From assembly GCA_016286165.1 (NCBI GenBank), contig JAEESE010000006.1:78633-142632 (forward strand): DNA of 64,000 nt, in the 5' to 3' direction. Shown here piece by piece: positions 8,093 through 51,448 of the stretch. The notes beneath the pieces were generated by a model that had not been told where the DNA came from, did no database searches, and saw only the letters and a program-made list of their open reading frames with translations. Numbering within the stretch: position 1 is the stretch's first letter; each line of letters opens with the position of its first letter. The stretch is from Bacteroidaceae bacterium. GTDB lineage: Bacteria; Bacteroidota; Bacteroidia; Bacteroidales; Bacteroidaceae. A program made the translations under genes and the position numbers.

Positions 8093-8210
8093 CCTTATCT
8101 ATATAATTATTGTGTAATTCTTCTCTGTTGTTTCCCCTTCCTGACGGAAGGGGCACTGGGGCTTTCTTCTTTGGGCTCCCTTCGCTGACTGGAGGGGAAC
8201 GGTGGTTGGG

Positions 8211-8999
8211 TTAGAAGGTTACCGGATTGCCGAATTCATCCGTGAGGGGCTCCTCGTGAGTTTCGTTGTACTCGTTGAGGGCTCGCTGCATGAGCTGCTG
8301 CAGGTGAATGGCATAGGCCACTGATACGACATTCAGTTCCTCGTCGTAGGCGGTCTGGGTGTTGTAGTTTATCTCAAAGTCTACGAGACCGAGGTGCTCG
8401 ATCATGAATTGGTACTTGACGCGGCTGTAGGTGCCGAAGTACTTGGAGAGGGGAATGCGCGGGAAATTGGCTGCGTCCCAGTTGTCGGGCTTGGCGAGGT
8501 AGTTTTTCAGGACTACTGTGAACTGCTGGTGGTTCTCGGTGCCCAATTGGAATTCATCGTTGGGCACTACGCGGAAGTTGATGTGCCCGTCTTTCGTGGT
8601 GAAGAGTGTGGGCGAGCTGAGCGCCTGGCTATTGAAATAGACCTGATAGGTGCCGCCTATCGCGCCTGCGGGGATAATGTAGTCCTCAGTCCGCACTGTG
8701 TTTGCCATGAGGTCGTAGTCGCCGCCGAAAGGCTCGAGGTGGAAAGTGCGGTCGTGGTCGGCCGGCACACCGCTTATCTGGGCGTAGAAAGTCACGGCAC
8801 CTTCCTCGTAGGCGTAGGAATAGTTGTAGGTGGTGGATTCAAACACGGCGCCGGCGGCGTTGCCTACCCATATGTCGAGGCTTGTGCGGTCAGGGTCGTA
8901 GGTCGATATCTCCTCGTGGGTGCATGAGGCGAGCATCGCTGCCATGATGGCGATGAATGAATAGCGGATGTATAAAGAATGGTTGATTCTCATAGACAT
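8211..8999 (-). CDS. DUF4843-like lipoprotein
   Basis: 262 aa with lipobox AMLASC. It lies immediately downstream of SusD and upstream of the PKD-like gene. The family call is based mainly on conserved gene order. Confidence 0.5.
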   Translation of the reverse strand: MSMRINHSLYIRYSFIAIMAAMLASCTHEEISTYDPDRTSLDIWVGNAAGAVFESTTYNYSYAYEEGAVTFYAQISGVPADHDRTFHLEPFGGDYDLMANTVRTEDYIIPAGAIGGTYQVYFNSQALSSPTLFTTKDGHINFRVVPNDEFQLGTENHQQFTVVLKNYLAKPDNWDAANFPRIPLSKYFGTYSRVKYQFMIEHLGLVDFEINYNTQTAYDEELNVVSVAYAIHLQQLMQRALNEYNETHEEPLTDEFGNPVTF

Positions 9000-9125
9000 T
9001 TATATGTGTGTTGTTGTCGGTTCTTGGTTGGCTGTGGGGAACCTTCCTGACGGAAGGGGCACGGTGGCTTTTACTTTTGGGCTCCCCTTCCTGACGGAAG
9101 GGGCACGGTGGCTTTTTTCTTTTGG
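8921..9125. repeat. Copy 1 of a roughly 200-bp direct repeat covering the first 26 codons and leader of the DUF4843-like gene
   Basis: Near-identical to 10523-10722. It contains two copies of ccccttcctgacggaaggggcacggtggctttt. Confidence 0.9.
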
Positions 9126-9152
9126 GCTCCCCTCCAGGGAGGGGGCTTTTCT

Positions 9153-10601
9153 TTATTTATTTGCCTCTCTCTGGGCGGCTTCGGTTTCGGTTATTGGCAG
9201 CGGGAAGGTGTATACTTTCTCGGCCACGGCGTCGACGTCGGAGTAGAGGATGTTGGGGCGGTTCAAGCGTTTGTAGAGGAAGAATAGCTGGCCCTCGCCG
9301 AGGAATTCGCGGCGGTATTCGCGTATGAGTTCAAGCTCGAAATCGGAGGGCAGTTCGCTCATGGCAGGCAGGTTGCGGGCTATGCGCAGCTGGTTGAGGG
9401 CAGCCCGTGCGCCGTCGGTATTGCCTTGGCGCTGCAGTACTTCAGCTCGTATGAGGTACATCTCTGAGATACGCATCAGCGGCATCTTATATCTGTAATA
9501 TGTGTTGTTGCCAGCGGGGTCATCGTATTTGGCCGTGTAGCGGTTGTTGGCATGAGTGGCTGTGCCGGATTTGAACAGGAAGGTGTAGCGATAGTCCTGT
9601 GTGGCGTTGTCGAAATAGTCGAGCAGTCGGTCGCGTGTGACGGCGAAACTGTACTGTGAGCCATCGTCGAAATAGCGGTCGGCGATATCAGCCTTGAGCG
9701 TCAGGTTGTTAAGGGCGAACAGGTGTTCGGTGGCGAAGCAGCGGTCGTAGCCGGCCTGCAGGTTGGACACTGTGGCCCATGGGAATTTCTCGGAATCGAT
9801 TACCTCGTTGGCGGCGTCGAGGGCTTGCTGGTAATCGCCTTGCCACATGTAGACGCGGGCTTCGAGGGCCTTGACGGCGTAGTAGTTGAGGTGTAGCTGG
9901 CGGTTGAGCAGGTAGCCGTTGTCGACGCTCTCGGTGATCTCGCGCCCTGTGACGATGGGGTCGGCACCTTTGAGCAAAGCCTCGGCAGTCTTCAGGTCGG
10001 CGAGCACGGCGGCAGCAGCTTCGCGCACTGTGAGCTGTGGGAAAACACGGTAGCTCAATGCGGTGGAGTAGGGGATTGATGGCTGCTCGGGATTTACGGC
10101 GAAGCTGACGCCGAAGCAGCGCAGAAGGTCGAAGTGGAGGAATGCGCGCAGGGCTATGGCTTCGCCTTTGATGACGTCGTGGTTGTCGGCCGAGAAGAGG
10201 CCGGGCTGGTCGTCGATGTGCTGAAGCAGGTTGTTGGCATTGGCGATTCCGCTATAGCTGTTTGCCCAGATAGCTCGGATGTAGTTTGTCGGGAATGAGG
10301 CGTCGTAGTTGAAGGCTGCAGCGTCGTCGTACTGGCTGGCGTAGTAGAAATCCCATTCGTGGCCGAGCACTCCGAGGAAACCGTAGGTGGCTTCTTTGGC
10401 ATAGGTGGAAGTGCTGACCATGGAGGAATAGACGCCGGCGAGGGCTTCCTTGAAGCCGCTCTCGCTCTTGAACAGCTCTGTGTCCTCGACTTGTGAGCGT
10501 GGCTGAACGTCGAGCCAGTCGTTGCATGAGGCGAGCATCGCTGCCATGATGGCGATGAATGAATAGCGGATGTATAAAGAATGATAGATTCTCATAGACA
10601 T
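9153..10601 (-). CDS. RagB/SusD family nutrient-binding outer membrane lipoprotein
   Basis: 482 aa with lipobox AMLASC followed by NDWLDVQPRSQVEDTELF. It has TPR-like helical content and lies directly downstream of SusC. Confidence 0.88.
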   Translation of the reverse strand: MSMRIYHSLYIRYSFIAIMAAMLASCNDWLDVQPRSQVEDTELFKSESGFKEALAGVYSSMVSTSTYAKEATYGFLGVLGHEWDFYYASQYDDAAAFNYDASFPTNYIRAIWANSYSGIANANNLLQHIDDQPGLFSADNHDVIKGEAIALRAFLHFDLLRCFGVSFAVNPEQPSIPYSTALSYRVFPQLTVREAAAAVLADLKTAEALLKGADPIVTGREITESVDNGYLLNRQLHLNYYAVKALEARVYMWQGDYQQALDAANEVIDSEKFPWATVSNLQAGYDRCFATEHLFALNNLTLKADIADRYFDDGSQYSFAVTRDRLLDYFDNATQDYRYTFLFKSGTATHANNRYTAKYDDPAGNNTYYRYKMPLMRISEMYLIRAEVLQRQGNTDGARAALNQLRIARNLPAMSELPSDFELELIREYRREFLGEGQLFFLYKRLNRPNILYSDVDAVAEKVYTFPLPITETEAAQREANK

Positions 10602-10722
10602 TTATATGTGTGTTGTTGTCGGTTCTTGGTTGGCTTTGGGGCCCTTCCTGACGGAAGGGGCACGGTGGCTTTTTTCTTTCTGAGCTCCCCTTCCTGACGG
10701 AAGGGGCACGGTGGCTTCTTTC
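10523..10722. repeat. Copy 2 of the roughly 200-bp direct repeat (first 26 codons and leader of SusD)
   Basis: See 8921-9125. The encoded N-termini are MSMRIYHSLYIRYSFIAIMAAMLASC (SusD) and MSMRINHSLYIRYSFIAIMAAMLASC (DUF4843-like). Confidence 0.9.
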
Positions 10723-10723
10723 T

Positions 10724-13700
10724 TTAGAATGTGGCGGTTAGACCCAGTGAGAAGGTGCGGGCGTATGGATAGCTGAGACCACGCTCGGCCTTGATGGTTG
10801 CCAGATGGAAGACATCGTTCATATAGGCTGTCACGCGCAGACGCTCGAGCTTGGCTCGCTGGAGCCGTGAGCAGTGCTTGAAGTCGTAGTAGGCTGACAC
10901 GGTGGTGAAGTCGAGCATGTTGTTGCGCTGAACAAAACGTGTTGAGGCATAGGTGGTTGTGGGCGTTGAGGAGATATGCTTGTAGAGGGCTATGTCTCCG
11001 GGTTGACTCCAAGTGTCGCTGAACACGCGGCGGTCAACGTTATTGGCAATATTGACGTTTTCCACGCGGTCCACGAGCGTTTGGTTGTAATAGTCGCCGC
11101 CCATCTGGTAGCTCATGAGCAGGCTCAGTCCGAAGCCTTTCACTTCGCCGTTGAAGCCGAGTGTGCCGTGTACCTTGGGGTTCGAGTCGCCGGCGATGAT
11201 GTAGTCGTCGGTGGTGTATGTGTAGGTGGTTGTGCCGTCCTTCTTGAGGAACATCTCACGGCCTGTGGCGGGGTCGATGCCGAGTGATTTCACAGCCCAG
11301 ATAACGCTCATCGACTGGCCTTCCTCGTAACGGATGATAGGTGAAGTGGTGTTCTCGGCATCCTGTTCGCGGTTGAAGGTCGAGAGTGCGTCGCTAATCT
11401 TAGTCACCTTGTTCACGTTGTGTGCAATACTTCCCGTCAAAGTGAGGTATGACTGGCCACTCTGGTAGAAACGCCAGTTGGCGGTTGCTTCAACGCCTCG
11501 GTTCTGCACATTGCCGAGGTTCTCCATGTACGATGTGAAACCCGTTGACGTCGGGATAGACATGGCAATGAGGGCGTCGCGTGTGCGGCTGTCGTAGTAG
11601 TCGAAGCGCATATTCAGGCGCTTCCACAGCCCGAGGTCGAGGCCGACGGTGAAGTCGCCCGTCTGCTGCCATTTCAGATTGGGATTAGGCATACCCATTA
11701 GGTATGAACCTGAGATATTGTCGTAGATGATGTTGTCGTAGAACTTATATGTCGCCTTGGCCTGATAAGGTGAGAAATTCTGGTTACCCGTGAGACCGTA
11801 GGTGACGCGGAACTTGCAGAGCGACAGCCAAGTAGCATCCTCCATGAAGTGCTCCTTGTGCAGATTCCAACCTACGCCGGCGCTCCAGAATGTACCCCAA
11901 CGGTTGTCGCTGCCGAATACCGATGAGCCGTTGAAACGCAAGCTGGCGTCGAAGAGGTAACGCTCGTCGTAGCTATAGTTGGCGGCTGCCGTGAGGCCGA
12001 GCGAGCGTGTGCGGCCTTCCGAGCCCGAGGGCTTGCCGCCTTCGGCGTATTGCTTGGCGAAGGTGATGTAGTCGACGTGGTTGTTGAGGAAGCCCCAGGC
12101 CGTCATGCCTTCGGATTCGTTGCTGCTCGACTGCAGTGAATAGGCGGCGTTGGCCAGCAGTAGGTGCTTGTCCCACGTGTGAGAGTAGTTGCCCGTGATA
12201 TCCATGTTCAGGCTGTTTGTCTCGCCGTTGTTGATGAAATAGCTGCCGCGCTGGAAATAGCGGTCGCCCGTCCAGTCGTTGAAACGGGTATGGTCACCGG
12301 GGTAGAAGTCCTCGCGCTTGTTGTTCTGGTGGTTGTAGCCCAAGCGTGCCGTGAAGCGGAGGTCCTCGATGGGGCGGTATTCGAGGTAGAAGTTCTCGAC
12401 CACTTCGGTGTACTTAGAGAAATTCTTGGTACCCAAGGTGGCGTTGAACAACGGGTTGTAGTAGGTGGTTGTGCTGCCGTTGGCGCCGGGCGAGGTGTAG
12501 GTGCCGAGCACTTTCTGAACGTTGCCGAAGGCGTCGGTCGACGTGAAATAAGGATTCACTACTACGTAGTCGCTGAAGCTGCCATAGGGGCTGTCGTCGG
12601 CCGTGTTGCCCGTGACTGACAATGAGTTGCGGAACATCCACTGCTTGTAGCGGTAGCTGAGGTTGATGTTGCCCTGGAGTGTGCGGCGCCCGGATTCCTT
12701 CATTACGCCGGCCACTTTGTTGTACATGAGGTTGGCGGCGTAGCGCATCTCTTCGGTGCCGCCTTCGACGTAGGCCGTGTGCTTGTTGCCGACGCCGGAG
12801 CGCAGTGGCTGCGACAGCCAGTAGGTGTCTACGCCGCGGGCTATGTTGGCTGCGATGGCGTTGTACTGCTCATCGAGCAAAGCCTGGTAGTAGGGCGAGG
12901 CTGATGTGTAGCGGCCTGCGTTCTTCTCCACCTGCAGTTTCTCCTGAGCGTTGCAGAGGTCGTAGGTCGACAGGTCGGGCAGCTCCACGTTGACGTCGCC
13001 GGTGTAGGTGATGCGCAGTCGTCCGGCTTCGGGAAGGATGGTTTCTACCACTATCACACCGTTGCTGGCCTTGGAACCGTAGATGGCCTTGGCGGCGCCG
13101 TCCTTAAGGATGGTTACGCTTTTGATGCGGTTTATGTCGAGGTCGAAGATCTGCTGCTGCGACGCCTCGAAGCCGTCGAGGATGAACAGCGGGGCGTTAG
13201 GGTTGCCGCTGTACTCGCCTTGCAGTCCGCTGAACGAGGCCTTACCACGGATGGTGATATCGGCCATGTAGTTGGGGTTAGAACCGTTGATGCTGTTCAT
13301 GTCGACGATGAACGAGGGGTCTATGGACTGAATGATTTTCAGCGTGTTGCTGTTGCCTACGAGCTTCAGTTCCTCTTGCGAATACGACACGGCGGAGCCT
13401 GTGAAGGTCGATGATTTGTAGTCGAACAGACCTGTTACCACCACCTCTTTCATTTCGCCGCTTTCCTGCAGGACTATCACCTCTTTGGTGTAGTTGCGCT
13501 TGCCGTCGTAACGCTTGGTGGTAGGTTTCATGCCAGCGTACGAGAATTCTAATGTCACGGCCTGACCGCGGGGCACGCCAATGACGAAGTTGCCCTCGGC
13601 GTCGGCCACAGCACCTGCTTTGGTCTCACGCACTTTAATGCTGGCCATGGGCAATGTCTCGCCCTGGCTGTCCTTGATGGTACCTTGGACCAATAGGTCG

Positions 13701-18100: not shown

Positions 18101-18364
18101 ATCGTAGTAGCCCGCCGCGCAGGCTCGTCGTGGTGGATCGCTGGGCAGACCAACTGGCAGGCACGTAAGCTGCAGCTGCCCAACCTCGTCCAAGCCCTCG
18201 GCCTCGAGCCTCGCGCCAACAACAAGGTCACGCTCTATTCCGACGGCCCCAACGCCGCCAAGGTGGCCGAGGATTATTCCGTAAGCAACTTCCGTTTGGA
18301 ACCTGGCCGTCCGCTCACCATCGACCTCGCCCCGGGTGGTGGCTTCGTGATGAGGATAAACTAA
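15149..18364 (+). CDS. Fusion protein: N-terminal HExxH metalloprotease-like domain (about 430 aa) + glycoside hydrolase family 97
   Basis: Signal peptide present. The motif NCVAHELGHSFQMQ lies in the N-terminal part. The C-terminal roughly 630 aa carry GH97-type motifs (YVILDEGWY, GVAGFKVDFLDRDDQ, VVDYHGFYKPTGLNRTYPN). Confidence 0.8.
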   Translation: MKRIILFIVALTTAFAASAIDITGKQIYIPQELRSNDFESDSSQWSYSRMRLTPNFAIFWQRGFGADLSNPPRLEGRPMSVDLDNLASRLEEFYAFYRDSLKFIKAGSLAEKYRMMVMLNYSLEGTAYGGDYDEVIGAFWVAPNRLQDRRLNCVAHELGHSFQMQSHCDRRARAGQSAEQGQTSGQNTQFIDTQDAQRPDVQRWFGGGFFEMTSQWMLWHVNPDWVKDELYHWRDYQKQPHLALFSGANIYHTPYALEWWSQQHGLEIIGQIYHTASNPEDPADAYMRLTGLNVEQFNDELFEAHRHTVFLDFRHAFKNTRPYAGHWPQVDEAGAPEAGGFDVRRMPVPARGERIDVDFRGRSSKPTDGWRYGFVAQMSDGTCIYSPAMKAQQGKATFTAPRNADVRELYFVVMGAPTERRSREVSGNFPYEMVVATAGGLCSPNGRLAVSPQIEGDALSFSVTLDGNTLVERVGDCLVADAKAGVSKLKLVKRETKREHIEAFAYRQKAFDVLYTSALYHLNSLFDVEFRIFDDGVAYRFIQTAKRPLTIRDEAFDLKPAGDPLTYLAFSTNAKKPEAMAFQNIYTVDSLSRLPQEWAFMPVTFELGQAKLTITEADLEAYPGMFLKPDGKSLRSAFGRYPSRMDYYNHRGMSYVAETEDFIAKTNGRRNFPWRVFAVATDDRQMPVSNLVYALASPNRIGDTSWITPGKSAWDWWNDWELRGVPFKAGLNQDTYKYYIDFAERFGLQYVILDEGWYDPKKADIMNAVPEIDVKELVDYARSKGVKIILWTVFNVLDEHLEEACRKYADMGVAGFKVDFLDRDDQTAVEMAYRIAETAARHRLVVDYHGFYKPTGLNRTYPNVINFESVFGMEEVKWNSDKKDMPQYDVTFPFIRGMAGPVDFTPGAMRNAQLKDFKDIYSHPMSMGTRCHQLATYVIHDAPLSMLADAATSYEAEPDYTRFLAAIPSTVDETRVLLGSLGEYIVVARRAGSSWWIAGQTNWQARKLQLPNLVQALGLEPRANNKVTLYSDGPNAAKVAEDYSVSNFRLEPGRPLTIDLAPGGGFVMRIN

Positions 18365-18378
18365 CGCCGAATTCATTA

Positions 18379-18510
18379 CACGAGCGGTCATAAGTGGCCA
18401 CACGAGCGGTCATAAGTGGACATACGAGCGGTCATAAGTGGCTCCACGAACGGTCATAAGTGGACATACGAACGGTCATAAATGGGCTTACATATGGTCA
18501 TGAATACATC
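18379..18510 (+). repeat. Tandem array of five to six 22-bp units (core CGARCGGTCATAAGTGG)
   Basis: The unit starts at 18381, 18403, 18425, 18447 and 18469, with a degenerate unit at about 18491. The units are contiguous with no spacers. Confidence 0.9.
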
Positions 18511-24386: not shown

Positions 24387-24416
24387 GTTAACGAAAACGC
24401 ATAATTCCCCATAGTT

Positions 24417-24872
24417 ATGAAACTCGCTGAAGCTTTAAGCATCCGCAAGGATCTGCAAAAACGTATCCAACAGATAGGGAAACGTTTGGAAGATAACGTG
24501 AAGATACAGGAGGGCGACGAACCAGCCGAGAACCCGAAGGAACTGATGAAGGAATTGGACGAATGCCTGAAACAATTGGAAAACCTGATTTGGCGTATTA
24601 ACCTGACAAACGTTCAGACCGTGAATGAGGCAGGTAAGACCGTCACGCAACTGATGGCAGAGAAAGATGTACTTTCGTTACGCTTGTCGACTTTACGCGG
24701 CACTTTCGACAGGGCTTCTTCGCAACACGATCGTTATTCCCGTTCTGAAATAAAGATGATTACGGTGGTAGATGTCAAGCAACTGAGCAAGCAGATTGAC
24801 GAATACTCAGCTGCGCTACGCAAGCTTGATATGGAAATTCAGACGTTGAATTTCCAGACCGAACTCGTCTGA
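24417..24872 (+). CDS. DIP1984-family (septicolysin-like) coiled-coil protein
   Basis: MKLAEALSIRKDLQKRIQQ...ENPKELMKELDECLKQLENLIWRINLTN...RYSRSEIKMITVVDVKQL...LNFQTELV matches my memory of the DIP1984 family consensus. Confidence 0.6.
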   Translation: MKLAEALSIRKDLQKRIQQIGKRLEDNVKIQEGDEPAENPKELMKELDECLKQLENLIWRINLTNVQTVNEAGKTVTQLMAEKDVLSLRLSTLRGTFDRASSQHDRYSRSEIKMITVVDVKQLSKQIDEYSAALRKLDMEIQTLNFQTELV

Positions 24873-25114
24873 TTTCTATTGGAGACATTCACATTCATAG
24901 GGCGAACTGAAAAACAATTGGTCTCTGATCAATGCCCGTTCGGCCGGGAGCAGGCCTCCTTCTCATTGGAGAACTCACGGAGCAAGCTTAGCACGGCTGC
25001 AATCGCATGCATTGTTCATTTAGCACATTGCACTACCGTCAGTTGACTATGATTGTCGAATGTCTCCTTCCTTTGTTGTCCTTTTATAAATTGTTGTTGG
25101 CGATATAGAAGTTT

Positions 25115-25147
25115 TTCATTGATGAACCCTTGTGTTATTGGCACAAG
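25115..25147. promoter_or_regulatory. Two small palindromes (candidate operators) upstream of the WYL gene promoter
   Basis: TTCAT-TG-ATGAA (25115-25126) and CTTGTG-ttattgg-CACAAG (25129-25147), about 30-60 nt upstream of the -7 box at 25174. Confidence 0.3.
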
Positions 25148-25173
25148 CAAGATTGTTCACCTTTTCCTATTAT

Positions 25174-25181
25174 TATATTTG
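25174..25181 (+). promoter_or_regulatory. -7 box TATATTTG for the WYL-nuclease operon
   Basis: Exact TAnnTTTG match 34 nt upstream of the ATG at 25215. Confidence 0.55.
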
Positions 25182-25214
25182 CCGTAGTCATTTCCCTGCT
25201 TTTGTATTTTTACG

Positions 25215-26126
25215 ATGATTAGCAAAACTTATTATCGATATATCTGGCTGCTGAACTTGTTGCTTGATAGCGACCCTCTCACATTTGATGAGATCTGTAT
25301 GATGTGGAAAATGAATCCGGCGTTCGATGGTCCTTTACCCATCCGTACGTTCCACGAGCATCGGAAGGGCATCAAAGAGATGTTTGGCGTGGACATCGAA
25401 TGCGACCGTTCGAAGGGTAATGTCTATTACGTCAAGAATCCGGAGGTCTTGGGGAAGATGAAACTGGAGAAGTGGTTGTTGCGTAATTATAGCATTCCAC
25501 AGGACTTTGTGACCTTCAACGCTATGAAGGACCGTATCCTGCTGGAGGAGATACCGCTGGGGCAGGCTTTCTTGGATCATATCATCGAAGCGATGAAGTC
25601 GAACGTGGAACTGCGGATAGAATACCAGCGATATGAATACGGGCAGGACACTCATCGACAAACGATTCACATGCAACCATACGCCCTGAAGGTCTATAAC
25701 CGTCGTTGGTATCTGTTGGGCTATCTGAAGGAACAAGATGCCTTGCGCATCATCTCGTTAGACCGCATTCTAAGCTTGCAAGTGCTAAAGACCTTCTTTG
25801 AACTGCCTTCAAACTTCAATGCAAGGAAATACTTCGCTGATGTGGTCGGCATCTTCGTGAACGAAGATCTTCCTGTGACCAAAGTGAAGATTCGCGCCTA
25901 CGGTACTCAGGCAGAATACCTTCGCTCTACTCCGCTCCATAAAAGCCAATCCGAAGGTCGCTCCAAATATCGTGAGTTTGCAGAATTCACCTATAGACTG
26001 TGCATAACACCAGAGTTGGTCACTCAGTTGCTAGCAATGGGGGACAAGGTAGAGGTGCTGGAGCCGGAGGAGTTGAGAGAAGAGATGAAAGAAGAATTAA
26101 TTAAATGTTTAACAAATTATAAATAG
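25215..26126 (+). CDS. WYL-domain transcriptional regulator (wHTH-WYL-WCX, BrxR/CapW-like architecture)
   Basis: 303 aa. It has an N-terminal wHTH-like region (YRYIWLLNLLLDSDPLTFDEI), the WYL signature VYNRRWYLLGY, and a C-terminal extension ending ...VEVLEPEELREEMKEEL. Confidence 0.8.
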   Translation: MISKTYYRYIWLLNLLLDSDPLTFDEICMMWKMNPAFDGPLPIRTFHEHRKGIKEMFGVDIECDRSKGNVYYVKNPEVLGKMKLEKWLLRNYSIPQDFVTFNAMKDRILLEEIPLGQAFLDHIIEAMKSNVELRIEYQRYEYGQDTHRQTIHMQPYALKVYNRRWYLLGYLKEQDALRIISLDRILSLQVLKTFFELPSNFNARKYFADVVGIFVNEDLPVTKVKIRAYGTQAEYLRSTPLHKSQSEGRSKYREFAEFTYRLCITPELVTQLLAMGDKVEVLEPEELREEMKEELIKCLTNYK

Positions 26127-26130
26127 TGTT

Positions 26131-26889
26131 ATGCAAATATCAAATAAAAATGGTAAAATAATTACTTGCCTCTCAACATGGAAAGATGCTTTTATTGAAG
26201 TTGACAATCCAAAGCATTGGAAACCAGGTAGGAGCGCTCATTCTTTAGCTCTTCATTTTACACGCCCATCAATAAATGGTTCTAAAGGAATAGATGTTTT
26301 ATCGGAATATCTTGGATATCTGGGATTTAAAAATGTTTTATTCGATTATGCAGAAATAGAGCATGAGAGCCGTTTTGATACCTTCCGTGGAAATGGACGT
26401 ATTCAAGATTTAATGATTTGGGCAAAAAGCGGAAATCGCCCTTTAGCTATATGTATAGAAGCCAAGGTTGATGAAACATTTGATAAGAATGTACCAGATG
26501 CGTATAAAGAAAGAATGATTTATTCTTCCAAGAGACCTAAGAGCAAAACCCTTGATAGATTAAACTATATTTGTAAGCACTATTATAAAGTTGAACCCAA
26601 TAGTAGTGAACTGAATGATATTCGATATCAACTTCTTTACTATCTAGCAGGCTCTATCACTGAGGCCAAAAAAATTGATGGCGTTGCATTTATGCCAGTC
26701 TTTGTTTACCATACAGATTCATACAACGATCAAAATGGAGATAATAACAAAAAAGACTATGAGACATTTATCAAATCACTTAATTTTTCTTCTATAAGGG
26801 TTAATGACACAATCCAAATGTATAAGAATAAAATTGACGGCGTTGATGTTTATAGTGCATATATCGAAATAGAAAAAAATGATTATTAA
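26131..26889 (+). CDS. PD-(D/E)xK nuclease-fold protein (possibly DUF6946-like)
   Basis: It starts 4 nt after the WYL gene stop. The candidate catalytic pattern is EHESRFD ... IQDLMIW ... ICIEAKVDE (E / D / ExK). The N-terminal WKDAF...HWKPGRSAHSLALHF resembles my recollection of DUF6946. This is unverified. Confidence 0.5.
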   Translation: MQISNKNGKIITCLSTWKDAFIEVDNPKHWKPGRSAHSLALHFTRPSINGSKGIDVLSEYLGYLGFKNVLFDYAEIEHESRFDTFRGNGRIQDLMIWAKSGNRPLAICIEAKVDETFDKNVPDAYKERMIYSSKRPKSKTLDRLNYICKHYYKVEPNSSELNDIRYQLLYYLAGSITEAKKIDGVAFMPVFVYHTDSYNDQNGDNNKKDYETFIKSLNFSSIRVNDTIQMYKNKIDGVDVYSAYIEIEKNDY

Positions 26890-26970
26890 TAATTTAAAAT
26901 AAGAGATACCTTTGTAAAATCTATTTTATCTTCATTTTTAGAATAAATATATAGAATACATCTCCTTTCT

Positions 26971-27011
26971 GCGGCGTTTTTGCATAACAAACAGCAAAAA
27001 CGTCGTTTTTT
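26971..27011 (+). terminator. Intrinsic terminator of the WYL-nuclease operon (first copy of a duplicated cassette)
   Basis: gcggcgtttttgc-ataacaaaca-gcaaaaacgtcg followed by tttttt. The 12-bp stem contains one G-U pair, which is valid only on the plus-strand RNA. Confidence 0.8.
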
Positions 27012-27085
27012 GTGACTTTTCATTCGTATATATATATTTATAGGGGCTGGTATGAAAAGGTGTGCCCCATGATGTTTCACTAAAA

Positions 27086-27093
27086 TATATTTG
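27086..27093 (+). promoter_or_regulatory. -7 box TATATTTG upstream of the 101-aa acidic membrane protein gene
   Basis: Exact TAnnTTTG match 45 nt upstream of the ATG at 27138. Confidence 0.5.
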
Positions 27094-27137
27094 TATATGG
27101 CATTACATATTATTTTATTCGCGACAAAGAAGGTCGC

Positions 27138-27443
27138 ATGGAAAAGATTCTGGACGATAAGGAGTATGATAGTTATCAAATGAGAAAGGGATGCTTTCAG
27201 TTCCTGTTAGCTGCTGCTCTTATAGGCTTGGCGGTTTATGGTAGCACCATGCAAGAGCCTGAAGACTCCTCAGATGCACAGACGGAGACGCCCACAATAG
27301 AGACTGAAGAAACCATTGAAATGAAAGAGGAGGAAGCGTCATCCGAGGAAGAGGACTTAGAAGATGTAAAAACAGAAACCGAAGACACCTCTTCTGTCAT
27401 TGACGAAGATGAATTGGTACAGCGGTTCAAGGAGAATCAGTAA
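27138..27443 (+). CDS. Small membrane-anchored protein with an extremely acidic tail
   Basis: 101 aa with one TM helix (CFQFLLAAALIGLAVYG). The 62-residue tail is about 40% D/E (EPEDSSDAQTETPTIETEETIEMKEEEASSEEEDLEDVKTETED...). Confidence 0.6.
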   Translation: MEKILDDKEYDSYQMRKGCFQFLLAAALIGLAVYGSTMQEPEDSSDAQTETPTIETEETIEMKEEEASSEEEDLEDVKTETEDTSSVIDEDELVQRFKENQ

Positions 27444-27507
27444 GAATAAAAGAATAGATTTATAAACACTTAGCAGTTCGTCCGACACGTAGATAGGGCT
27501 ATGTCAC

Positions 27508-27921
27508 ATGAAAATAACTGAGAAATACGTAAACGAGTCGCATCTTGAAGAGGTTTATCAACTCTTGCATAAAGGTGAAAAGTTGATTGATCTTGACTTG
27601 GAAAACGTGAAGAGTGTGCTTGTAGGAAAAGAGGGCATTCTTTACGAGGCCTATAAAGACGGCGGTGCAGAGAATGGCGCCTTTATGGAAGAATTCTTTG
27701 ATACGGTGAAAAAGATGGAAATGGTTCAAAACTGCACAGGAATACTATTCAACATAACCATGCCGGATGATGATCAATTGATGATGGAGGATATGGACAT
27801 TATCAATTGCTTCCTCAAATTATTTGAAGAAAAGAATATGATGATTCGTTGGGGGTTAAGGGTTGATGAGCAGGGAAGCCAGACATCTATATTAATGATC
27901 TGCACTAAAGATAAACAGTAA
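27508..27921 (+). CDS. Stand-alone FtsZ C-terminal-domain-like protein
   Basis: 137 aa. By eye it aligns along its length with E. coli FtsZ residues about 205-316. The matched pairs are LIDLDLENVKSVL vs LINVDFADVRTVM, CTGILFNITMPDDDQLMMEDMD vs ARGVLVNITAGFDLRLDEFE, and TSILMICTK vs LRVTVVATG. There is no N-terminal GTP-binding domain. Confidence 0.6.
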   Translation: MKITEKYVNESHLEEVYQLLHKGEKLIDLDLENVKSVLVGKEGILYEAYKDGGAENGAFMEEFFDTVKKMEMVQNCTGILFNITMPDDDQLMMEDMDIINCFLKLFEEKNMMIRWGLRVDEQGSQTSILMICTKDKQ

Positions 27922-27982
27922 AAGTGCGGAGCCAGTATTGGGCCTTCTTACACCCAAATTCCACAAATTACATATCCTTTCT

Positions 27983-28022
27983 GCGGTGTTTTTGCACATC
28001 AAACAGCAAAAACGCCGTTTTT
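27983..28022 (+). terminator. Intrinsic terminator (second copy of the duplicated cassette)
   Basis: gcggtgtttttgc-acatcaaaca-gcaaaaacgccg followed by ttttt. The wobble pair is U-G here, versus G-U at the same stem position in copy 1. Confidence 0.8.
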
Positions 28023-28083
28023 GTATCTATTCTTTCGTATATATATAATAGAGGGCTATTCCTCTTAACGAGTAAAAGTAGTA

Positions 28084-28434
28084 ATGATGCAAGAACAGAA
28101 GACACTAACCGTGACAGACATCTTGGGCAACGCAGTCAACACACCGTTGCTCAGTAATGAGGAAGAAATCCGTATGTCAAAGAAGGTAAGAGAGGGTGAT
28201 GAGGCGGCTATCAAGGAGTTCAAACAATGCAATGCGCGCTTCGTGGCGGCAGTCGCCAAGCAGTACACCGACCGAGGCATGACCATCGACGAGCTGATGG
28301 AGGCGGGCTACGACGGACTCATAGAAGCAGCATGTAAGTACGACGAGAAAGACGGATTCAAGTTTATCAGCTATGCCGTTTGGTGGATTCGACAAAACAT
28401 TCTACAAGTCCTATTTGCACCAGCTTCGAACTAA
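28084..28434 (+). CDS. Sigma-70 family protein truncated to regions 1.2-2.4 (sigma-2 domain only)
   Basis: TPLLSNEEEIRMSKKVREGDEAAIKEFKQCNARFVAAVAKQYTDRGMTIDELMEAGYDGLIEAACKYDEKDGFKFISYAVWWIRQNI aligns colinearly with primary-sigma regions 1.2-2.4. The ORF stops 10 codons after WWIRQ. There are no regions 3 or 4. Confidence 0.75.
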   Translation: MMQEQKTLTVTDILGNAVNTPLLSNEEEIRMSKKVREGDEAAIKEFKQCNARFVAAVAKQYTDRGMTIDELMEAGYDGLIEAACKYDEKDGFKFISYAVWWIRQNILQVLFAPASN

Positions 28435-28474
28435 AAAGAATCAAATAGATAACCAATCTCAATACTTACATCTT

Positions 28475-28936
28475 ATGATTACAACAAGACTTACAACCAA
28501 GAAATCCGAATTCCGTGAGATGCTCAGCAAGCTCAACGCCCAGCAAAAGCGTCTCTTCAGTCCCGATGAGGTGGATTACCTCTCGAACTGCAATAGCTTT
28601 GAGTATCTGGAGTTCAAGCAGGAAGATGAGGATGACGATGAATTCCTCAAGCAGTTTTCCACCTGGCTGCACGAGTGCCCCAAGCATCAGGGGCACGTGG
28701 ATTACTATGTCCTGTTCTATCTCTGTATGGGCGAGACGCTGACCCGAGATCAGTTCGAGTACATGGAGCGGAACGTCGCCGAATGCTTCGACACTAGCCA
28801 CGGCTGGATCTACGAGATCAACAACCGTATTCGCTTCAAGATGCGTGTCCGTCTGATATGCAGTTACAAGAACAAGATGCGTCGTCTGACAAGAAAGGAT
28901 TGGAGAGAAGGAACTGAGATTGACGAAAACAAATGA
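28475..28936 (+). CDS. Hypothetical protein with a weak sigma region-4-like HTH (possible second half of a split sigma factor)
   Basis: The ATG at 28475 was chosen because the longer 28373 start overlaps the sigma-2 ORF. YYVLFYLCMGETLTRDQ...VAECFDTSHGWIYEINNRIRFKMR loosely resembles region 4.1-4.2 (xxVLxLRFG...xxEVGxxFGVTRERIRQIExKALRKLR). It also has an acidic stretch, QEDEDDDEF. Confidence 0.4.
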   Translation: MITTRLTTKKSEFREMLSKLNAQQKRLFSPDEVDYLSNCNSFEYLEFKQEDEDDDEFLKQFSTWLHECPKHQGHVDYYVLFYLCMGETLTRDQFEYMERNVAECFDTSHGWIYEINNRIRFKMRVRLICSYKNKMRRLTRKDWREGTEIDENK

Positions 28937-28955
28937 TTGGATTAACCGTAACGTC

Positions 28956-29849
28956 ATGAAAGAGACCACAACGAAGATATTGAAGAGACTTGTCGCCGAA
29001 GGCATGAAAATGCGCTATGGCGACAACCCTGACAGAAAAGTGAAACTGAGAATACTATGGGAGCTGAAGCATATCATAGATGCCGGCTTCGAGGGCCACT
29101 ATATCATGGTCTTTAGGTTATTCAGGCATTATGCTGAGACCGTAAAGATGGGCTATAGGGGGCGCGGCGCGATGTGTTCCTCTATTGTTTGCTACTGCTT
29201 GGGCCTCACAGAGGTTGATCCTCTGCGCTTTGGCCTTCACTCGGCTCGTTTCGTAAACGATGAGCCGCCCAAGTTTCAATTTGACTTCGAGGCATCACAC
29301 TACGATGAGTTCATGCAAGGGGCACAGCATCTGCTTGTAGCTAATGCAAAGGACTACGACATGGAGGTCGTGCGCTTGTCTCTGGATGTCACACCGATGG
29401 CATATCTGAGCAGGAAACGTGAAGCGCCAGAGCCTGAGGACCTCGATGATGAGATAGCGCGTGATGCCCTTATTCGACCTGACACGATGGACTTGTATGA
29501 TGCTTACATGCGTCGCAAAAGTGACGGGCTCTGGACGAGACATGGTGGACGTCTCGATGAGATACTGGCTCCTACCTGCGGATTTTTGGTATATCAAGAG
29601 CAAATGCTGGACATCCTTCGCCAGTTCTTTCACGTGAGCGGAATCAAGGCCAACCAAATCCGCCTGAGCATTCAACGAGGAGACACAGAGCAAGTTGAAA
29701 CTTACAAGCAGGAACTCTTTGCTCACCTCGAAGACCTCACAGAGAAAAAGGCCGAATGGCTCTGGCAACTCCTCACCAGCAATCCTCATGCCTTCCTGAA
29801 AGCTCATGCGGTTAGTCGTGTGCTGGCAAAGTGTCATTTTGAATATTAA
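28956..29849 (+). CDS. Miniature DnaE (Pol III alpha)-like protein lacking the catalytic aspartates
   Basis: Segment 1, ELKHIIDAGFEGHYIMVF...GYRGRGAMCSSIVCYCLGLTEVDPLRFGLHSARFVNDEPPKFQFDF, aligns with DnaE ELQVINQMGFPGYFLIV...[48 protein letters not shown]. Segment 2, ALIRPDT...YMRRKSDG...LAPTCGFLVYQEQMLDILRQ...ANQIRLSIQRGD...FLKAHAVSRV, aligns with the fingers region (ALFRPGP...FIDRKHG...LEPTYGIILYQEQVMQIAQ...ADMLRRAMGKKK...FNKSHSAAYA). The ATG at 28956 is preferred over the TTG at 28920. Confidence 0.65.
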   Translation: MKETTTKILKRLVAEGMKMRYGDNPDRKVKLRILWELKHIIDAGFEGHYIMVFRLFRHYAETVKMGYRGRGAMCSSIVCYCLGLTEVDPLRFGLHSARFVNDEPPKFQFDFEASHYDEFMQGAQHLLVANAKDYDMEVVRLSLDVTPMAYLSRKREAPEPEDLDDEIARDALIRPDTMDLYDAYMRRKSDGLWTRHGGRLDEILAPTCGFLVYQEQMLDILRQFFHVSGIKANQIRLSIQRGDTEQVETYKQELFAHLEDLTEKKAEWLWQLLTSNPHAFLKAHAVSRVLAKCHFEY

Positions 29850-29884
29850 TCGACAAAATAATAGTGAGAATAACAGAAAAAGTG

Positions 29885-29892
29885 TATTTTTG
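29885..29892 (+). promoter_or_regulatory. -7 box TATTTTTG for the PD-(D/E)xK / MBL operon
   Basis: Exact TAnnTTTG match 21 nt upstream of the ATG at 29913. Confidence 0.5.
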
Positions 29893-29912
29893 CAGAGTAA
29901 TAAATCGTTAAA

Positions 29913-30806
29913 ATGAATTTTATGGATAAAAAGTATTTCAAATTAAACAAGGATGCAGCATTATTTGAGTTTTTGTCTCATAAGCCTATGTGGTGGAAAT
30001 TGCTTTTAGAGGACAAGGACTTATATGTGAATATTAGAAAAGAAAACAGGATAAATGTTTATTATCGTGGAGCTTCTATAATGAGCCTTAGTTATAATGA
30101 TGGCAAGGTAACAGCTGAAATTCATAACTATTACTTGGGATTTGAGAAGGATACATGTGCTGCTTTAGGAATCAAATACGGCAATCAAAAGAAAGCCCCC
30201 GAAGAAATCGTTTGCAGACTTCCGATGATAAAGAAACGAGTAGAGGCGAACAAGAAGTACATCGCTTGTTTAGAGGAGGAAGGAATGGTAGGGAACATCT
30301 ATTCAAGTGAAAAGTATGTTCAATCACAACTCTATATGAATGATAACCATTACTTCGATACTGAATTTGCACTCAGGTTGGATGATGGCACAGATATCAG
30401 AATAGATTTGGTAAGAATGTCTGATCATGGCGAAATCTGCTTCGTGGAACTGAAATTGATTGATGACCAGCGACTTTATCCATCAAGTGGAAGAGATGCT
30501 GAGATCATTACCCAGATGGAAAATTATGAAAGATTCCTTTTAGAAGCTAATAAGTTGAAAGGAAAAACTGGTAAACCAATTCTTATCGAATATTATACAA
30601 CAGTCTTGGAAATTATGGAGAAGATAGGTATTCACCGTACATCCATTAAACCTGTAATGGTACATGACAAAGTCTTTCTCTTTATAAAACAAACCTACAC
30701 AAAGAAATCTTCAGGAAGAGAAAAACGCCTGAACACAATTAAAAAAGTATGTGATGGTTTATACTCCAATATTGATGATGTTTTAACGGATTATAATAGC
30801 CTATGA
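29913..30806 (+). CDS. PD-(D/E)xK nuclease-fold protein
   Basis: 297 aa. The candidate core is SEKYVQSQL ... IRIDLVRMSDHGEICFVELKLID (E / D / ExK spacing typical of restriction-endonuclease-like folds). Its stop overlaps the next start (ATGA at 30803-30806). Confidence 0.5.
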   Translation: MNFMDKKYFKLNKDAALFEFLSHKPMWWKLLLEDKDLYVNIRKENRINVYYRGASIMSLSYNDGKVTAEIHNYYLGFEKDTCAALGIKYGNQKKAPEEIVCRLPMIKKRVEANKKYIACLEEEGMVGNIYSSEKYVQSQLYMNDNHYFDTEFALRLDDGTDIRIDLVRMSDHGEICFVELKLIDDQRLYPSSGRDAEIITQMENYERFLLEANKLKGKTGKPILIEYYTTVLEIMEKIGIHRTSIKPVMVHDKVFLFIKQTYTKKSSGREKRLNTIKKVCDGLYSNIDDVLTDYNSL

Positions 30807-32026
30807 CCATTACCATTCATCGCGGCCTTGACCAGATAGGCGGCTGCATAACTGAGATAAGTACAGCAACGTCCCGCATCTTTGTGGATATGGGGCAGAA
30901 TCTACCAGGCAATGGTGAGAAAACCACACCGGCGCAGGACAAGGAGATGGTGGAAGGGCTGTTCAAGAACAACCCCAAAGCACATGAAGCCGTCATCTAT
31001 ACTCATGCACATGAAGATCATATAGGACTCTTTGATTATGTGCCGAAGGGCGTTCCTCAGATGATAGGAGAAGGTGCCAAGGATGTCTTGCTGGAAAAAT
31101 ACAGGTTGCTGTGCAAGGCTGATGAGGCAGCAGGAAATGACCCTGCTACAAATCTTCGGAAACGAGCAAAGCTAAAACGTTTTAAGACGTGGCCTCGAAG
31201 CCGTGATCCCAAACCATTCAGCGTTGGCGATATACAGATTACGCCCTTCTTCAACTGCCATTCCATCTATGACTCCTATATGTTTCTGATTGAGGCCGAC
31301 AGTAAGCGCGTCTGGCATATGGGCGACTATCGTCAGCACGGCTGGATGGGTGGCAAGTTGCTGCAACTGCTGAGATGGAGGGCCACGAATATCGACACCT
31401 TAATTACGGAAGGTACAATGCTTGGGCGTGAAGAGGAATGTATCACAGAAAAAGAGGTGTCTGAAAAGATGGCCCACGTGATGCGTGCCTTTAAATATGT
31501 CTTCGTACTGACCTCTGCCACAGACATTGAGCGTCTTGCCAGCATCAATTTGGCAGCAAGGCAAGTGAACAGGCCGCTCTATGTCAGCTCAGGGCTTTTG
31601 AATGCAGCAATGAAAATCTTTACTCATCGTGAAGCGAAGACACCTGGCGACCTGTTCTTTTTCAAGCCTCGTTACTATGGTGGGTTTAAGCATTTGGAAC
31701 CAATGAGAAAACGTGGTTTTGTGATGATTACCAACGTTGGAAAGTTTGTGGACATGGATAATCTTCGCCGTGAATTGCCAGAGAGTGAAACCCTACTCAT
31801 CTATTCCTCATGGGACGGCTACTACAATGACCCAGAGCAAGTGCGCCTCAATCCGATGTATGCCATGTTTCGCGGAGCGTTTCACAACGTAGTAGATATC
31901 CATACTTCTGGCCATGCCGACCGAAAGACCATCAAGCAGGTCATCGAGACCATCCATCCCAAGGAGGTCATCTGTATTCACAAAGAAAAAGGACAGTCGT
32001 TGGAGTCATTAGGAATACATTATTGA
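30803..32026 (+). CDS. Metallo-beta-lactamase fold nuclease of the beta-CASP / RNase J-like type
   Basis: Motifs HAHEDHIG (HxHxDH), FNCHS, HMGDY, the TEGT beta-CASP motif A-like element, and C-terminal HTSGHADRKTIKQVIETIHPKEVICIHKE (motif C). Confidence 0.75.
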   Translation: MTITIHRGLDQIGGCITEISTATSRIFVDMGQNLPGNGEKTTPAQDKEMVEGLFKNNPKAHEAVIYTHAHEDHIGLFDYVPKGVPQMIGEGAKDVLLEKYRLLCKADEAAGNDPATNLRKRAKLKRFKTWPRSRDPKPFSVGDIQITPFFNCHSIYDSYMFLIEADSKRVWHMGDYRQHGWMGGKLLQLLRWRATNIDTLITEGTMLGREEECITEKEVSEKMAHVMRAFKYVFVLTSATDIERLASINLAARQVNRPLYVSSGLLNAAMKIFTHREAKTPGDLFFFKPRYYGGFKHLEPMRKRGFVMITNVGKFVDMDNLRRELPESETLLIYSSWDGYYNDPEQVRLNPMYAMFRGAFHNVVDIHTSGHADRKTIKQVIETIHPKEVICIHKEKGQSLESLGIHY

Positions 32027-32155
32027 CTAGGGAACTCGATTCATGCAATATTTGAATTAAATATTTCTTTTTTAACCTGAAGAATAGGCGCGTGCCTCAT
32101 AGGGGCAAGGTTAAACTTGGCTGCCGAAAGAAAATGTATGGGCTGAGTGCTTTCC

Positions 32156-51204: not shown

Positions 51205-51316
51205 AAAAATTAGACCGGCCTAACATGCAAATTAGGCCGGCCTAATTCGTCTCTAAGGCTGGCCTATTTCGCCAATAAGCTTGGGCTAATTTGCCAATAA
51301 GATTAGGCTTATACAA
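51205..51316. repeat. Tandem array of about five 20-25-bp units built around the palindrome TTAGGCCGGCCTAA
   Basis: aaattagaccggcctaacatgc / aaattaggccggcctaattcgtctc / taaggctggcctatttcgcc / aataagcttgggctaatttgcc / aataagattaggcttatac. Confidence 0.8.
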
Positions 51317-51448
51317 ATCATGACCGTTCATACAAGCCATCATGACCGTTCATGCAAGCCATCATGACCGTTCATGCAGGCCTTTACGAACGTTCATACA
51401 AGCGAATACGACCGGTCATGTTTGGCAGCACGACCGGTCGTATTTTTA
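51317..51448 (-). repeat. Tandem array of six 22-bp units, related to and inverted relative to the array at 18379-18510
   Basis: atcatgaccgttcatacaagcc x3, then degenerating to acgaccggtcat and acgaccggtcgt. The reverse complement of the core (ATGAACGGTCAT) matches the 18.4-kb array core (CGAACGGTCAT). Confidence 0.85.

Follow-up and report, generated by a model that had tools for sequence, protein, structure and literature searches.

In Staphylococcus aureus FtsZ filaments, the catalytic water is held over the lower subunit's GTP by N208, D210 and D213 of the subunit above, and the backbone of strand S9, at M292 and F294, bridges to that nucleotide; assembly is suppressed by the substitutions D210N, D213N and N208L (PMC8936486). 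These residues of the T7 loop and S9 have no known role other than in trans, on a nucleotide-bound partner. Here we describe a 137-amino-acid (aa) protein that is a true homologue of the T7-loop-bearing C-terminal domain of FtsZ and stands alone. Its gene lies in a 64,000-nt stretch of DNA from a gut or rumen bacterium of the Bacteroidaceae (GenBank assembly GCA_016286165.1, contig JAEESE010000006.1, positions 78,633 to 142,632 of the forward strand), which we call the window and whose coordinates are used throughout.

Laboratory versions of FtsZ have reportedly included domains expressed on their own and interface 'capper' mutants (Oliva et al. 2004; Du et al. 2018). The 137-aa protein would resemble these in having one longitudinal face only, so that it joins a filament or subunit and cannot be built upon; the constructs are engineered, whereas the family described here is natural and widespread, and its effect on FtsZ is a proposal. 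SulA, MinC, MciZ and phage Kil are protein inhibitors of FtsZ assembly that bind the T7, or bottom, side of FtsZ. The outcome that we propose is similar, with a small induced protein blocking FtsZ polymer dynamics, but there is no kinship in sequence or fold, and the 137-aa protein would bind the opposite, nucleotide face through its own T7 side.

Two other described systems bear on the setting of the gene. Caulobacter has an SOS-independent division checkpoint in which DNA damage leads the WYL regulator DriD to switch on didA, a gene for a division inhibitor (PMC9186387, PMC4211646). In MoxR-vWA conflict systems, inactive cell-division-related domains are found as fusions, mostly MinD/ParA and FtsK and rarely FtsZ/tubulin, and inactive copies of cellular enzymes have been proposed to act as decoys (Kaur et al. 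2020, PMC7159879).

Results

A stand-alone FtsZ C-terminal domain

A first-pass annotation of the window had drawn attention to two open reading frames (ORFs) on the plus strand. Both lie where it placed them, with 64 nt between them; dN/dS is the ratio of nonsynonymous to synonymous substitution rates:

27508-27921, plus strand: 137-aa stand-alone FtsZ C-terminal (T7-loop, GTPase-activating) domain protein, assigned from profile, structure and conservation
27138-27443, plus strand: 101-aa small membrane protein with one hydrophobic helix at residues 18-34; dN/dS 0.31-0.56

The 137-aa ORF had been said to lack a GTP-binding N-domain, and indeed the protein has no Pfam match at E ≤ 1, neither to Tubulin (PF00091) nor to FtsZ_C (PF12327). 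NCBIfam, PHROGs and PADLOC likewise returned no match, and neither ORF matches any defence-system protein model in PADLOC-DB, to which only the WYL regulator gene and the sigma-70 fragment described below gave matches. The protein does not reach the Pfam gathering threshold for FtsZ_C, and its kinship with FtsZ is visible only by family profiles and structure.

Twenty-four close homologues of ~135-139 aa were found in metagenomes and metagenome-assembled genomes (MAGs), one of them carrying the JGI label 'cell division GTPase FtsZ'. A profile of 23 homologues matched 91 proteins at E ≤ 0.001 among 1.84 billion representative proteins, most of them stand-alone and 130-140 aa long. The same profile matches residues 206-318 of a true FtsZ (P0094, 442 aa; E 8.8e-6) and several FtsZ fragments; a Pfam check returned Tubulin plus FtsZ_C for P0094 and FtsZ_C for the fragments. 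With a deep alignment of 63 stand-alone members (mean column identity 25%), the profile matched PDB chains of FtsZ, with E 2.9e-7 for 9v7v and 8e-6 for the M. jannaschii protein. Profile positions 16-132 pair with chain residues ~219-338, a span that starts at the end of helix H7, takes in the T7 loop and closes with the last strand. An hhalign comparison with Phocaeicola FtsZ gave a probability of 98.8% and an E of 5.9e-17 over residues 202-320. Phocaeicola FtsZ scores 85 bits with the profile, far above any PDB FtsZ (at most 33 bits), and we therefore conclude that the family derives from Bacteroidota-type FtsZ. In tblastn, the window protein itself matches Phocaeicola ftsZ at 31.6% identity over residues 27-122. 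The colinearity with the FtsZ C-terminal domain that the first-pass annotation had drawn, from the T7-loop region to the last strand, is borne out by each of these comparisons.

When the window protein was compared by tblastn with 2.3 Gb of phage and 7.3 Gb of plasmid records, the only matches were ftsZ genes of 431-435 aa at ~31% identity, and Phocaeicola ftsZ was also the sole match in the 7.3 Gb for each of two distant members of the family when these were searched separately. We rejected these 'phage' and 'plasmid' matches as mobile copies of the gene; they are ordinary ftsZ genes on mislabelled records. A viral counterpart was not found in IMG/VR or BFVD.

The PDB, hhalign and Foldseek searches turned positive only with the deeper, 63-sequence alignment. 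PDB sequence searches with the single 137-aa sequence or a shallow profile found nothing relevant, hhalign with the 23-sequence alignment against E. coli FtsZ was negative, and a first AlphaFold2 model from a shallow alignment (predicted local distance difference test score, pLDDT, 77.5) gave only weak Foldseek matches to Alba and IF3-C. The model built on the 63-sequence alignment has a pLDDT of 93.9 and a predicted template modelling score (pTM) of 0.87, and its top 50 PDB matches in Foldseek are all FtsZ (best E 3.7e-6, probability 1.00, query TM-score 0.5-0.63). The premise of an isolated FtsZ C-terminal domain thus stands in structure as well.

The predicted fold begins with a strand (residues 3-9) that is an addition relative to FtsZ, followed by a helix that aligns with the end of H7 (10-20), a T7-like loop (27-33, IDLDLEN), H8 (31-38) and, past H8, a beta-alpha-beta-alpha-beta-beta core that reaches residue 135. 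Likeness to the FtsZ C-terminal domain (FtsZ_C, PF12327) extends to the colinear H7 end, T7 loop, H8 and S7-S10, a motif of the N-x-D-x-x-D type, the (W/F)-G of S9 and a superposing predicted structure. The differences are the absence of the GTP-binding domain, the linker and the C-terminal peptide, the new N-terminal beta-strand, and the position of the gene, which is on a low-GC island and not in the division and cell-wall gene cluster. The alignment begins near FtsZ residue 200, past the Rossmann-type GTP-binding domain, and the protein ends 2-5 residues beyond the last strand, so that the disordered linker and the C-terminal peptide are missing. We do not class the protein as an FtsZ, since it lacks two of the three parts that define one; it stands alone as a remote relative within the FtsZ C-domain lineage, below the Pfam threshold. 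No description of such a natural stand-alone family was found in the searchable literature, where the closest account is of FtsZ/tubulin domains as rare fused effector domains of MoxR-vWA systems, and the family has no name in Pfam, NCBIfam, PHROGs or PADLOC.

Across the 63 members, conservation is highest at W115 (61/63), the second T7 aspartate (56/63), G116 (56/63), the first T7 aspartate (54/63) and M93, followed by L29, L80, F59 and I27. The near-invariant tryptophan aligns with W319 of M. jannaschii FtsZ, since the wild-type chain outscores a W319Y mutant by 6 bits with the 63-sequence profile. The T7 motif reads (I)(N/G)(L)D-x-x-D(V/I) across the family, a consensus of (N/G)-L-D-x-x-D where the FtsZ C-terminal domain has N-x-D-x-x-D. 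The T7 aspartates and the Trp-Gly of S9 lie on the face that meets the next subunit's nucleotide, which fits docking onto a nucleotide-bound face by a domain that could not itself be extended. We infer from this pattern of residues that the family still works on an FtsZ-type GTPase, the main argument being that trans-acting residues have been kept without a nucleotide site of the protein's own.

Spread of the family and selection on it

Clustering at 50% identity divides the family, which occurs in Bacteroidales, into ~85 groups of proteins of ~130-140 aa; a scan of GTDB with narrow search patterns found 2 loci. The FtsZ-C-like gene has a dN/dS of 0.25-0.39 among close loci and lower values with distance (family range 0.08-0.39), and it is functional and under purifying selection. 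We considered whether the gene might instead be a relic, a decaying and functionless fragment of a duplicated or transferred ftsZ. Decayed copies do occur occasionally behind an intact leader, with a premature stop in locus L028 and an internal deletion in L040, and neighbouring genes also resemble gene fragments; a common length and a new N-terminal strand across the clusters, a dN/dS well below 1, a conserved leader and a confident predicted fold nevertheless make a relic very improbable. We rejected the pseudogene reading on dN/dS and family breadth.

Two variant architectures were also seen. In L003 (11475-13252) the module is in tandem duplication, with a 140-151-aa protein, the FtsZ-C-like protein, intervening content and a 138-141-aa protein, and in P0047 a guanylate kinase is fused to an FtsZ-C-like domain.

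A leader motif and two 80-nt repeats

Three non-coding elements surround the gene pair:

27476-27498, plus strand: leader motif GTTCGYCCGACACnnAnAWARGR, ending 9 nt before the ATG of the 137-aa gene
26957-27036, plus strand: 80-nt direct repeat, copy 1, with a 12-bp hairpin (26972-26983 / 26994-27005, 10-nt loop) and a T-run at 27006-27011
27969-28047, plus strand: 80-nt direct repeat, copy 2, with a hairpin (27984-27995 / 28006-28017) and a T-run at 28018-28022

In at least seven locus types, whose proteins are just 32-50% identical (L001, L007, L019, L025, L029-L037 and L041), the leader motif lies 5' of the FtsZ-C-like gene and its end is 8-10 nt from the ATG. There is one copy in the window and one per related locus, always just 5' of the homologous gene, and 12 of the 17 exact matches in metagenomes lie upstream of FtsZ-C-like genes or decayed copies. 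More distant family members do not have the motif. Rfam has no match to it or elsewhere in the island, and an RNA structure is not supported beyond a 4-bp stem. The motif is specific to the FtsZ-C-like gene family, consistent with tight control.

The two copies of the 80-nt repeat are 91% identical, and each T-run is followed by an A+T-rich, promoter-like stretch. Copy 1 precedes the 101-aa gene; copy 2 follows the 137-aa gene and precedes a gene for a sigma-70 fragment. In L007, where the 101-aa gene is missing, the 80-nt element lies directly 5' of the FtsZ-C-like gene. Our terminator scan was limited to loops of ≤8 nt, so it does not list these hairpins with 10-nt loops; read directly from the sequence, the stem is preserved in both copies through G-U pairs on opposite arms. 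Because G-U pairs keep the stem and T-runs come after it, each repeat looks like a terminator joined to a promoter, in a putative duplicated module; copy 1 would end the upstream gene and start the two-gene unit, and copy 2 would end that unit. For the same reasons we rejected a DNA operator palindrome.

The 101-aa membrane protein

The first-pass annotation had described the 101-aa ORF as having a single membrane helix and a 62-residue acidic tail, and this is correct, the tail containing 26 D/E and 4 K/R. Its homologues form 74 clusters of proteins of 103-140 aa, all at ≥53% identity, with an invariant N-terminal MEKILDD.EYD, the helix, an acidic spacer that varies in length by 14 residues, and a conserved C-terminal peptide, SSVIDEDELVQRF.ENQ. 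Most homologues start further upstream (MALHVIRD..GR); in the 101-aa gene this start has been lost, apparently by a 4-nt indel (27090-27140), and translation begins at an internal MEKIL, as it does in the homologue P0123.

The pairing of the two ORFs proposed in the annotation holds in part. The 101-aa protein is real and conserved, but its gene stands 5' of the FtsZ-C-like gene in the closest loci only, is missing from L007 and is replaced by other neighbours elsewhere, and we think of it as a lineage-specific accessory that would not be a required part. K/R residues are on the N-terminal side of the helix and are absent from the first 15 residues after it, a charge distribution that predicts an N-in, C-out topology with the acidic tail in the periplasm. 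If this topology is correct, the tail would be neither a DNA mimic nor a cytoplasmic tether, which argues against two of the roles first suggested for it.

The low-GC island and its genes

The gene pair lies in an island whose position in the chromosome, after sialic-acid genes (DHDPS, NanM-SSF and GlcNAc 2-epimerase) and before pectin-degradation genes, is also occupied in L007 and L010-L015, from related Bacteroidaceae and Prevotellaceae MAGs. Its features, other than those already given, are:

24400-32100: low-GC island, 33-48% GC against 51-61% in the flanks
25215-26126, plus strand: helix-turn-helix (HTH)-WYL-WCX transcription regulator (Pfam WYL 8e-13, WCX 2e-10; PADLOC WYL)
26131-26889, plus strand: DUF6946 protein of 252 aa (Pfam), with an E-x-K motif of PD-(D/E)xK type
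28084-28434, plus strand: 116-aa sigma-70 fragment with regions 1.2 and 2 only and neither 3 nor 4; dN/dS 0.2-0.36
28475-28936, plus strand: 153-aa protein (187 aa from the first ATG, at 28373), with weak matches to the C-terminal part of PHP and to the FtsZ-C-like family
28956-29849, plus strand: 297-aa DnaE fragment, N-terminal palm part plus fingers; dN/dS 0.21-0.28
29913-30806, plus strand: 297-aa ORF without a family match, between the DnaE fragment and the RNase J-like gene
30803-32026, plus strand: 407-aa RNase J / beta-CASP nuclease of metallo-beta-lactamase fold, by family match

The island is horizontally acquired and defence-like. Family scans of the window proteins found no integrase or recombinase in or beside it. 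A DUF6847/DIP1984-family gene (24417-24872) starts the island and is followed by the WYL/WCX regulator. The rAID-1 orphan immunity arrays of Bacteroidales (bioRxiv 10.1101/471110) also have low-GC, co-directional small genes and repeated intergenic sequences; they differ from the island, which has no XerD-like recombinase in or beside it and in which no immunity-family match was found.

The WYL gene is syntenic in L007-L015. L050 has a WYL/WCX gene, 29% identical to it, in the neighbourhood of a distant member of the family, and such regulators thus occur in two unrelated locus types. We regard the WYL protein of the window as a candidate regulator of the island and perhaps also of the gene pair. 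As in DriD-DidA, an HTH-WYL-WCX regulator (25215-26126) stands beside small genes, one of which encodes a small membrane protein, and by analogy the logic could be the same, a stress signal turning on a division brake. DidA is, however, homologous to neither ORF, and the WYL link exists only in some locus types. The slot between the regulator and the FtsZ-C-like unit varies, being filled by the 252-aa DUF6946 protein in the window, by a 304-aa protein in L010 (6525-7439) and by a 204-aa protein in L007 (7201-7815); all three carry an E-x-K motif of PD-(D/E)xK type, and this varying nuclease-like slot looks like effector swapping.

Three genes of the island encode truncated or crippled homologues of housekeeping proteins, namely the FtsZ C-domain, the sigma-70 fragment and the DnaE fragment. 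The nearest relatives of the sigma fragment are RpoD/RpoS and the sigma portion of MzaA (PADLOC: MzaA-like), and the fragment is conserved in related loci. The DnaE fragment spans DnaE residues ~290-415 and 556-686, with the middle of the palm missing, and reads PKFQFDFE where DnaE has the catalytic PDxDxDF; with the first catalytic Asp replaced, it is probably not a polymerase. The 153-aa protein matches PHP at E 0.004 and the full length of the FtsZ-C-like profile at a local E of ~2e-4, with an hhalign probability of only 33%, which makes it at most a candidate for a second FtsZ-C-like paralogue. The 297-aa ORF at 29913-30806 is absent from the equivalent position in L010-L015. dN/dS is <0.6 for the 101-aa partner, the sigma fragment, the 153-aa gene, the DnaE fragment and the WYL gene.

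Outside the island, the window contains two 22-nt tandem-repeat arrays (18357-18501 and 51300-51441) with cores ACGAGCGGTCAT / ATGACCGTTCAT, in opposite orientation and 33 kb apart. Between minus-strand genes there are repeated GC-rich hairpin units (CCTTCCTGACGGAAGGGGCAC..., 8136-10758) and a 124-nt repeat (8916-9039 / 10518-10641).

Neighbourhoods of family members elsewhere

Neighbouring genes change between locus types, and we rejected the idea of a universal gene partner. A partner consisting of the FtsZ N-domain alone was rejected too, since none was found among the scanned neighbours; a tubulin-like GTPase domain is absent from all scanned neighbour genes of the window island and related loci. 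In five locus types a DUF1232 (YkvA-like) membrane protein gene lies directly 3' of the FtsZ-C-like gene, the stop and start codons overlapping in some of them:

L001, 8777-9139: DUF1232 gene
L025, 629-991: DUF1232 gene
L031, 1790-2152: DUF1232 gene
L036, 2441-2803: DUF1232 gene
L045, 507-848: DUF1232 gene

In L045 the DUF1232 gene is followed by one for an Apyc1-like protein of metallo-beta-lactamase fold. Upstream, four locus types have genes for an AAA ATPase, two YbjN/TY-Chap-like proteins and a 140-aa protein. These associations, together with the occurrence of the FtsZ-C-like gene next to DnaE-like genes in two unrelated locus types and the deviation of the window protein from the T7 consensus, would suit a re-used fold, in which the domain serves as an adaptor or regulatory subunit for some other nucleotide-binding protein (DnaE-like, AAA or MoxR) or as a factor associated with small membrane proteins. 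No single neighbour is universal, however, no tubulin-like GTPase partner is encoded nearby, and the conserved residues are exactly those of the nucleotide interface between FtsZ subunits, and we consider re-use of this kind quite unlikely.

The distant member P0088 (L046-L048) has truncated DnaE-like genes on either side of it and lies in an operon with bpMoxR, vWA and WLM peptidase genes. Other loci have GmrSD, restriction-modification, HipA, NERD, RtcB/HIRAN, CHAT/AAA and MoxR-vWA genes nearby, and loci with these surroundings are defence or conflict islands. The window and the MoxR-vWA systems have in common that copies of cell-division proteins occur in conflict or defence loci; they differ in that the window island has no MoxR or vWA gene, and the stand-alone C-domain family is not described in the survey of those systems (PMC7159879).

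This setting raises the possibility of a decoy or tripwire, the main rival to the reading proposed below, in which the isolated C-domain mimics the FtsZ surface attacked by inhibitors (phage Kil-like proteins, SulA-, MinC- or MciZ-like proteins, or interbacterial toxins) and either soaks them up, protecting division, or reports them to a nearby immune effector; the sigma-70 and DnaE fragments would then be sister decoys for transcription and replication inhibitors. SulA, MinC and MciZ bind the C-terminal domain of FtsZ, which counts for a decoy, as do the defence-island setting, the purifying selection on all three truncated homologues of essential proteins in one island, and the occurrence of a distant family member between two DnaE-like genes in a bpMoxR-vWA-WLM peptidase operon. 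In one pair of loci, moreover, the FtsZ-C-like gene is 80% identical while its neighbours are 90-95% identical, so that it evolves faster than they do, and a decoy role has been published as a proposal for the inactive enzyme copies of MoxR-vWA conflict systems (PMC7159879). On the other hand, a decoy with an intact polymerisation face would poison FtsZ, and its T7 aspartates should drift, yet they are among the most conserved residues of the family. The fixed leader motif suggests regulated over constitutive expression, neighbours are not constant, and no inhibitor or effector partner was identified. We judge a decoy unlikely, with enough in its favour to be taken seriously.

Discussion

We propose, tentatively and in the knowledge that we may well be wrong, that the 137-aa protein is a non-extendable FtsZ cap or sequestering protein that acts as an inducible division brake. 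The domain would bind, through its T7/S9 face, to the top face of host FtsZ, where the nucleotide sits, either on a monomer or at the end of a filament. The domain would offer no nucleotide face of its own, so that nothing could add onto it; therefore FtsZ-GTP subunits would be sequestered, or protofilaments capped, and Z-ring dynamics would be slowed or blocked. From the gene's own leader motif, the duplicated terminator/promoter elements that bound the unit and the adjacent WYL regulator, we expect expression to be under tight control and induced by stress, for instance DNA damage or phage infection; WYL-controlled division inhibitors of other bacteria provide a precedent.

Several observations weigh against this proposal. 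In the window protein and its closest kin the motif is (D/N)-L-D-L-E-N, with the second T7 aspartate changed to Asn; in the window protein itself (D-L-D-L-E-N), the position of the FtsZ Asn is an Asp as well, and one Asp is kept. Because D213N and N208L suppress assembly of S. aureus FtsZ, docking by this member of the family could be weak or otherwise changed. The protein, encoded on an acquired island, is only ~31% identical to a Bacteroidales FtsZ C-domain, and the host ftsZ lies outside the window. Neighbour genes differ between locus types, the link to a WYL regulator being found in only two of ~10 types, and the recurrent truncated DnaE-like neighbours are not explained by a simple division brake.

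A broader idea, which we regard as doubtful, is that the island is a set of coordinated truncated mimics (the FtsZ C-domain, sigma-70 regions 1.2-2 and the DnaE palm-fingers) wired to the WYL regulator and the nucleases. These could serve as tripwires or decoys for phage inhibitors, or as a joint dominant-negative growth-arrest module for abortive infection, with the same logic in the MoxR-vWA operon.

We know of no published example of a natural half-FtsZ that has retained the trans-acting T7 face and yet cannot be polymerised upon. To our knowledge, Bacteroidales are without SulA-type checkpoints. The presence of sigma-70 and DnaE fragments alongside makes testable the idea that truncated copies of essential proteins serve for growth arrest or as bait for phage inhibitors, and the family is relevant to researchers in both cell division and phage defence. 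Should the 137-aa protein bind FtsZ, filament polarity and treadmilling could be probed with a genetically encoded tool, and if our proposal is true, the protein would be a division regulator for the Bacteroidales, whose control of division is poorly known.

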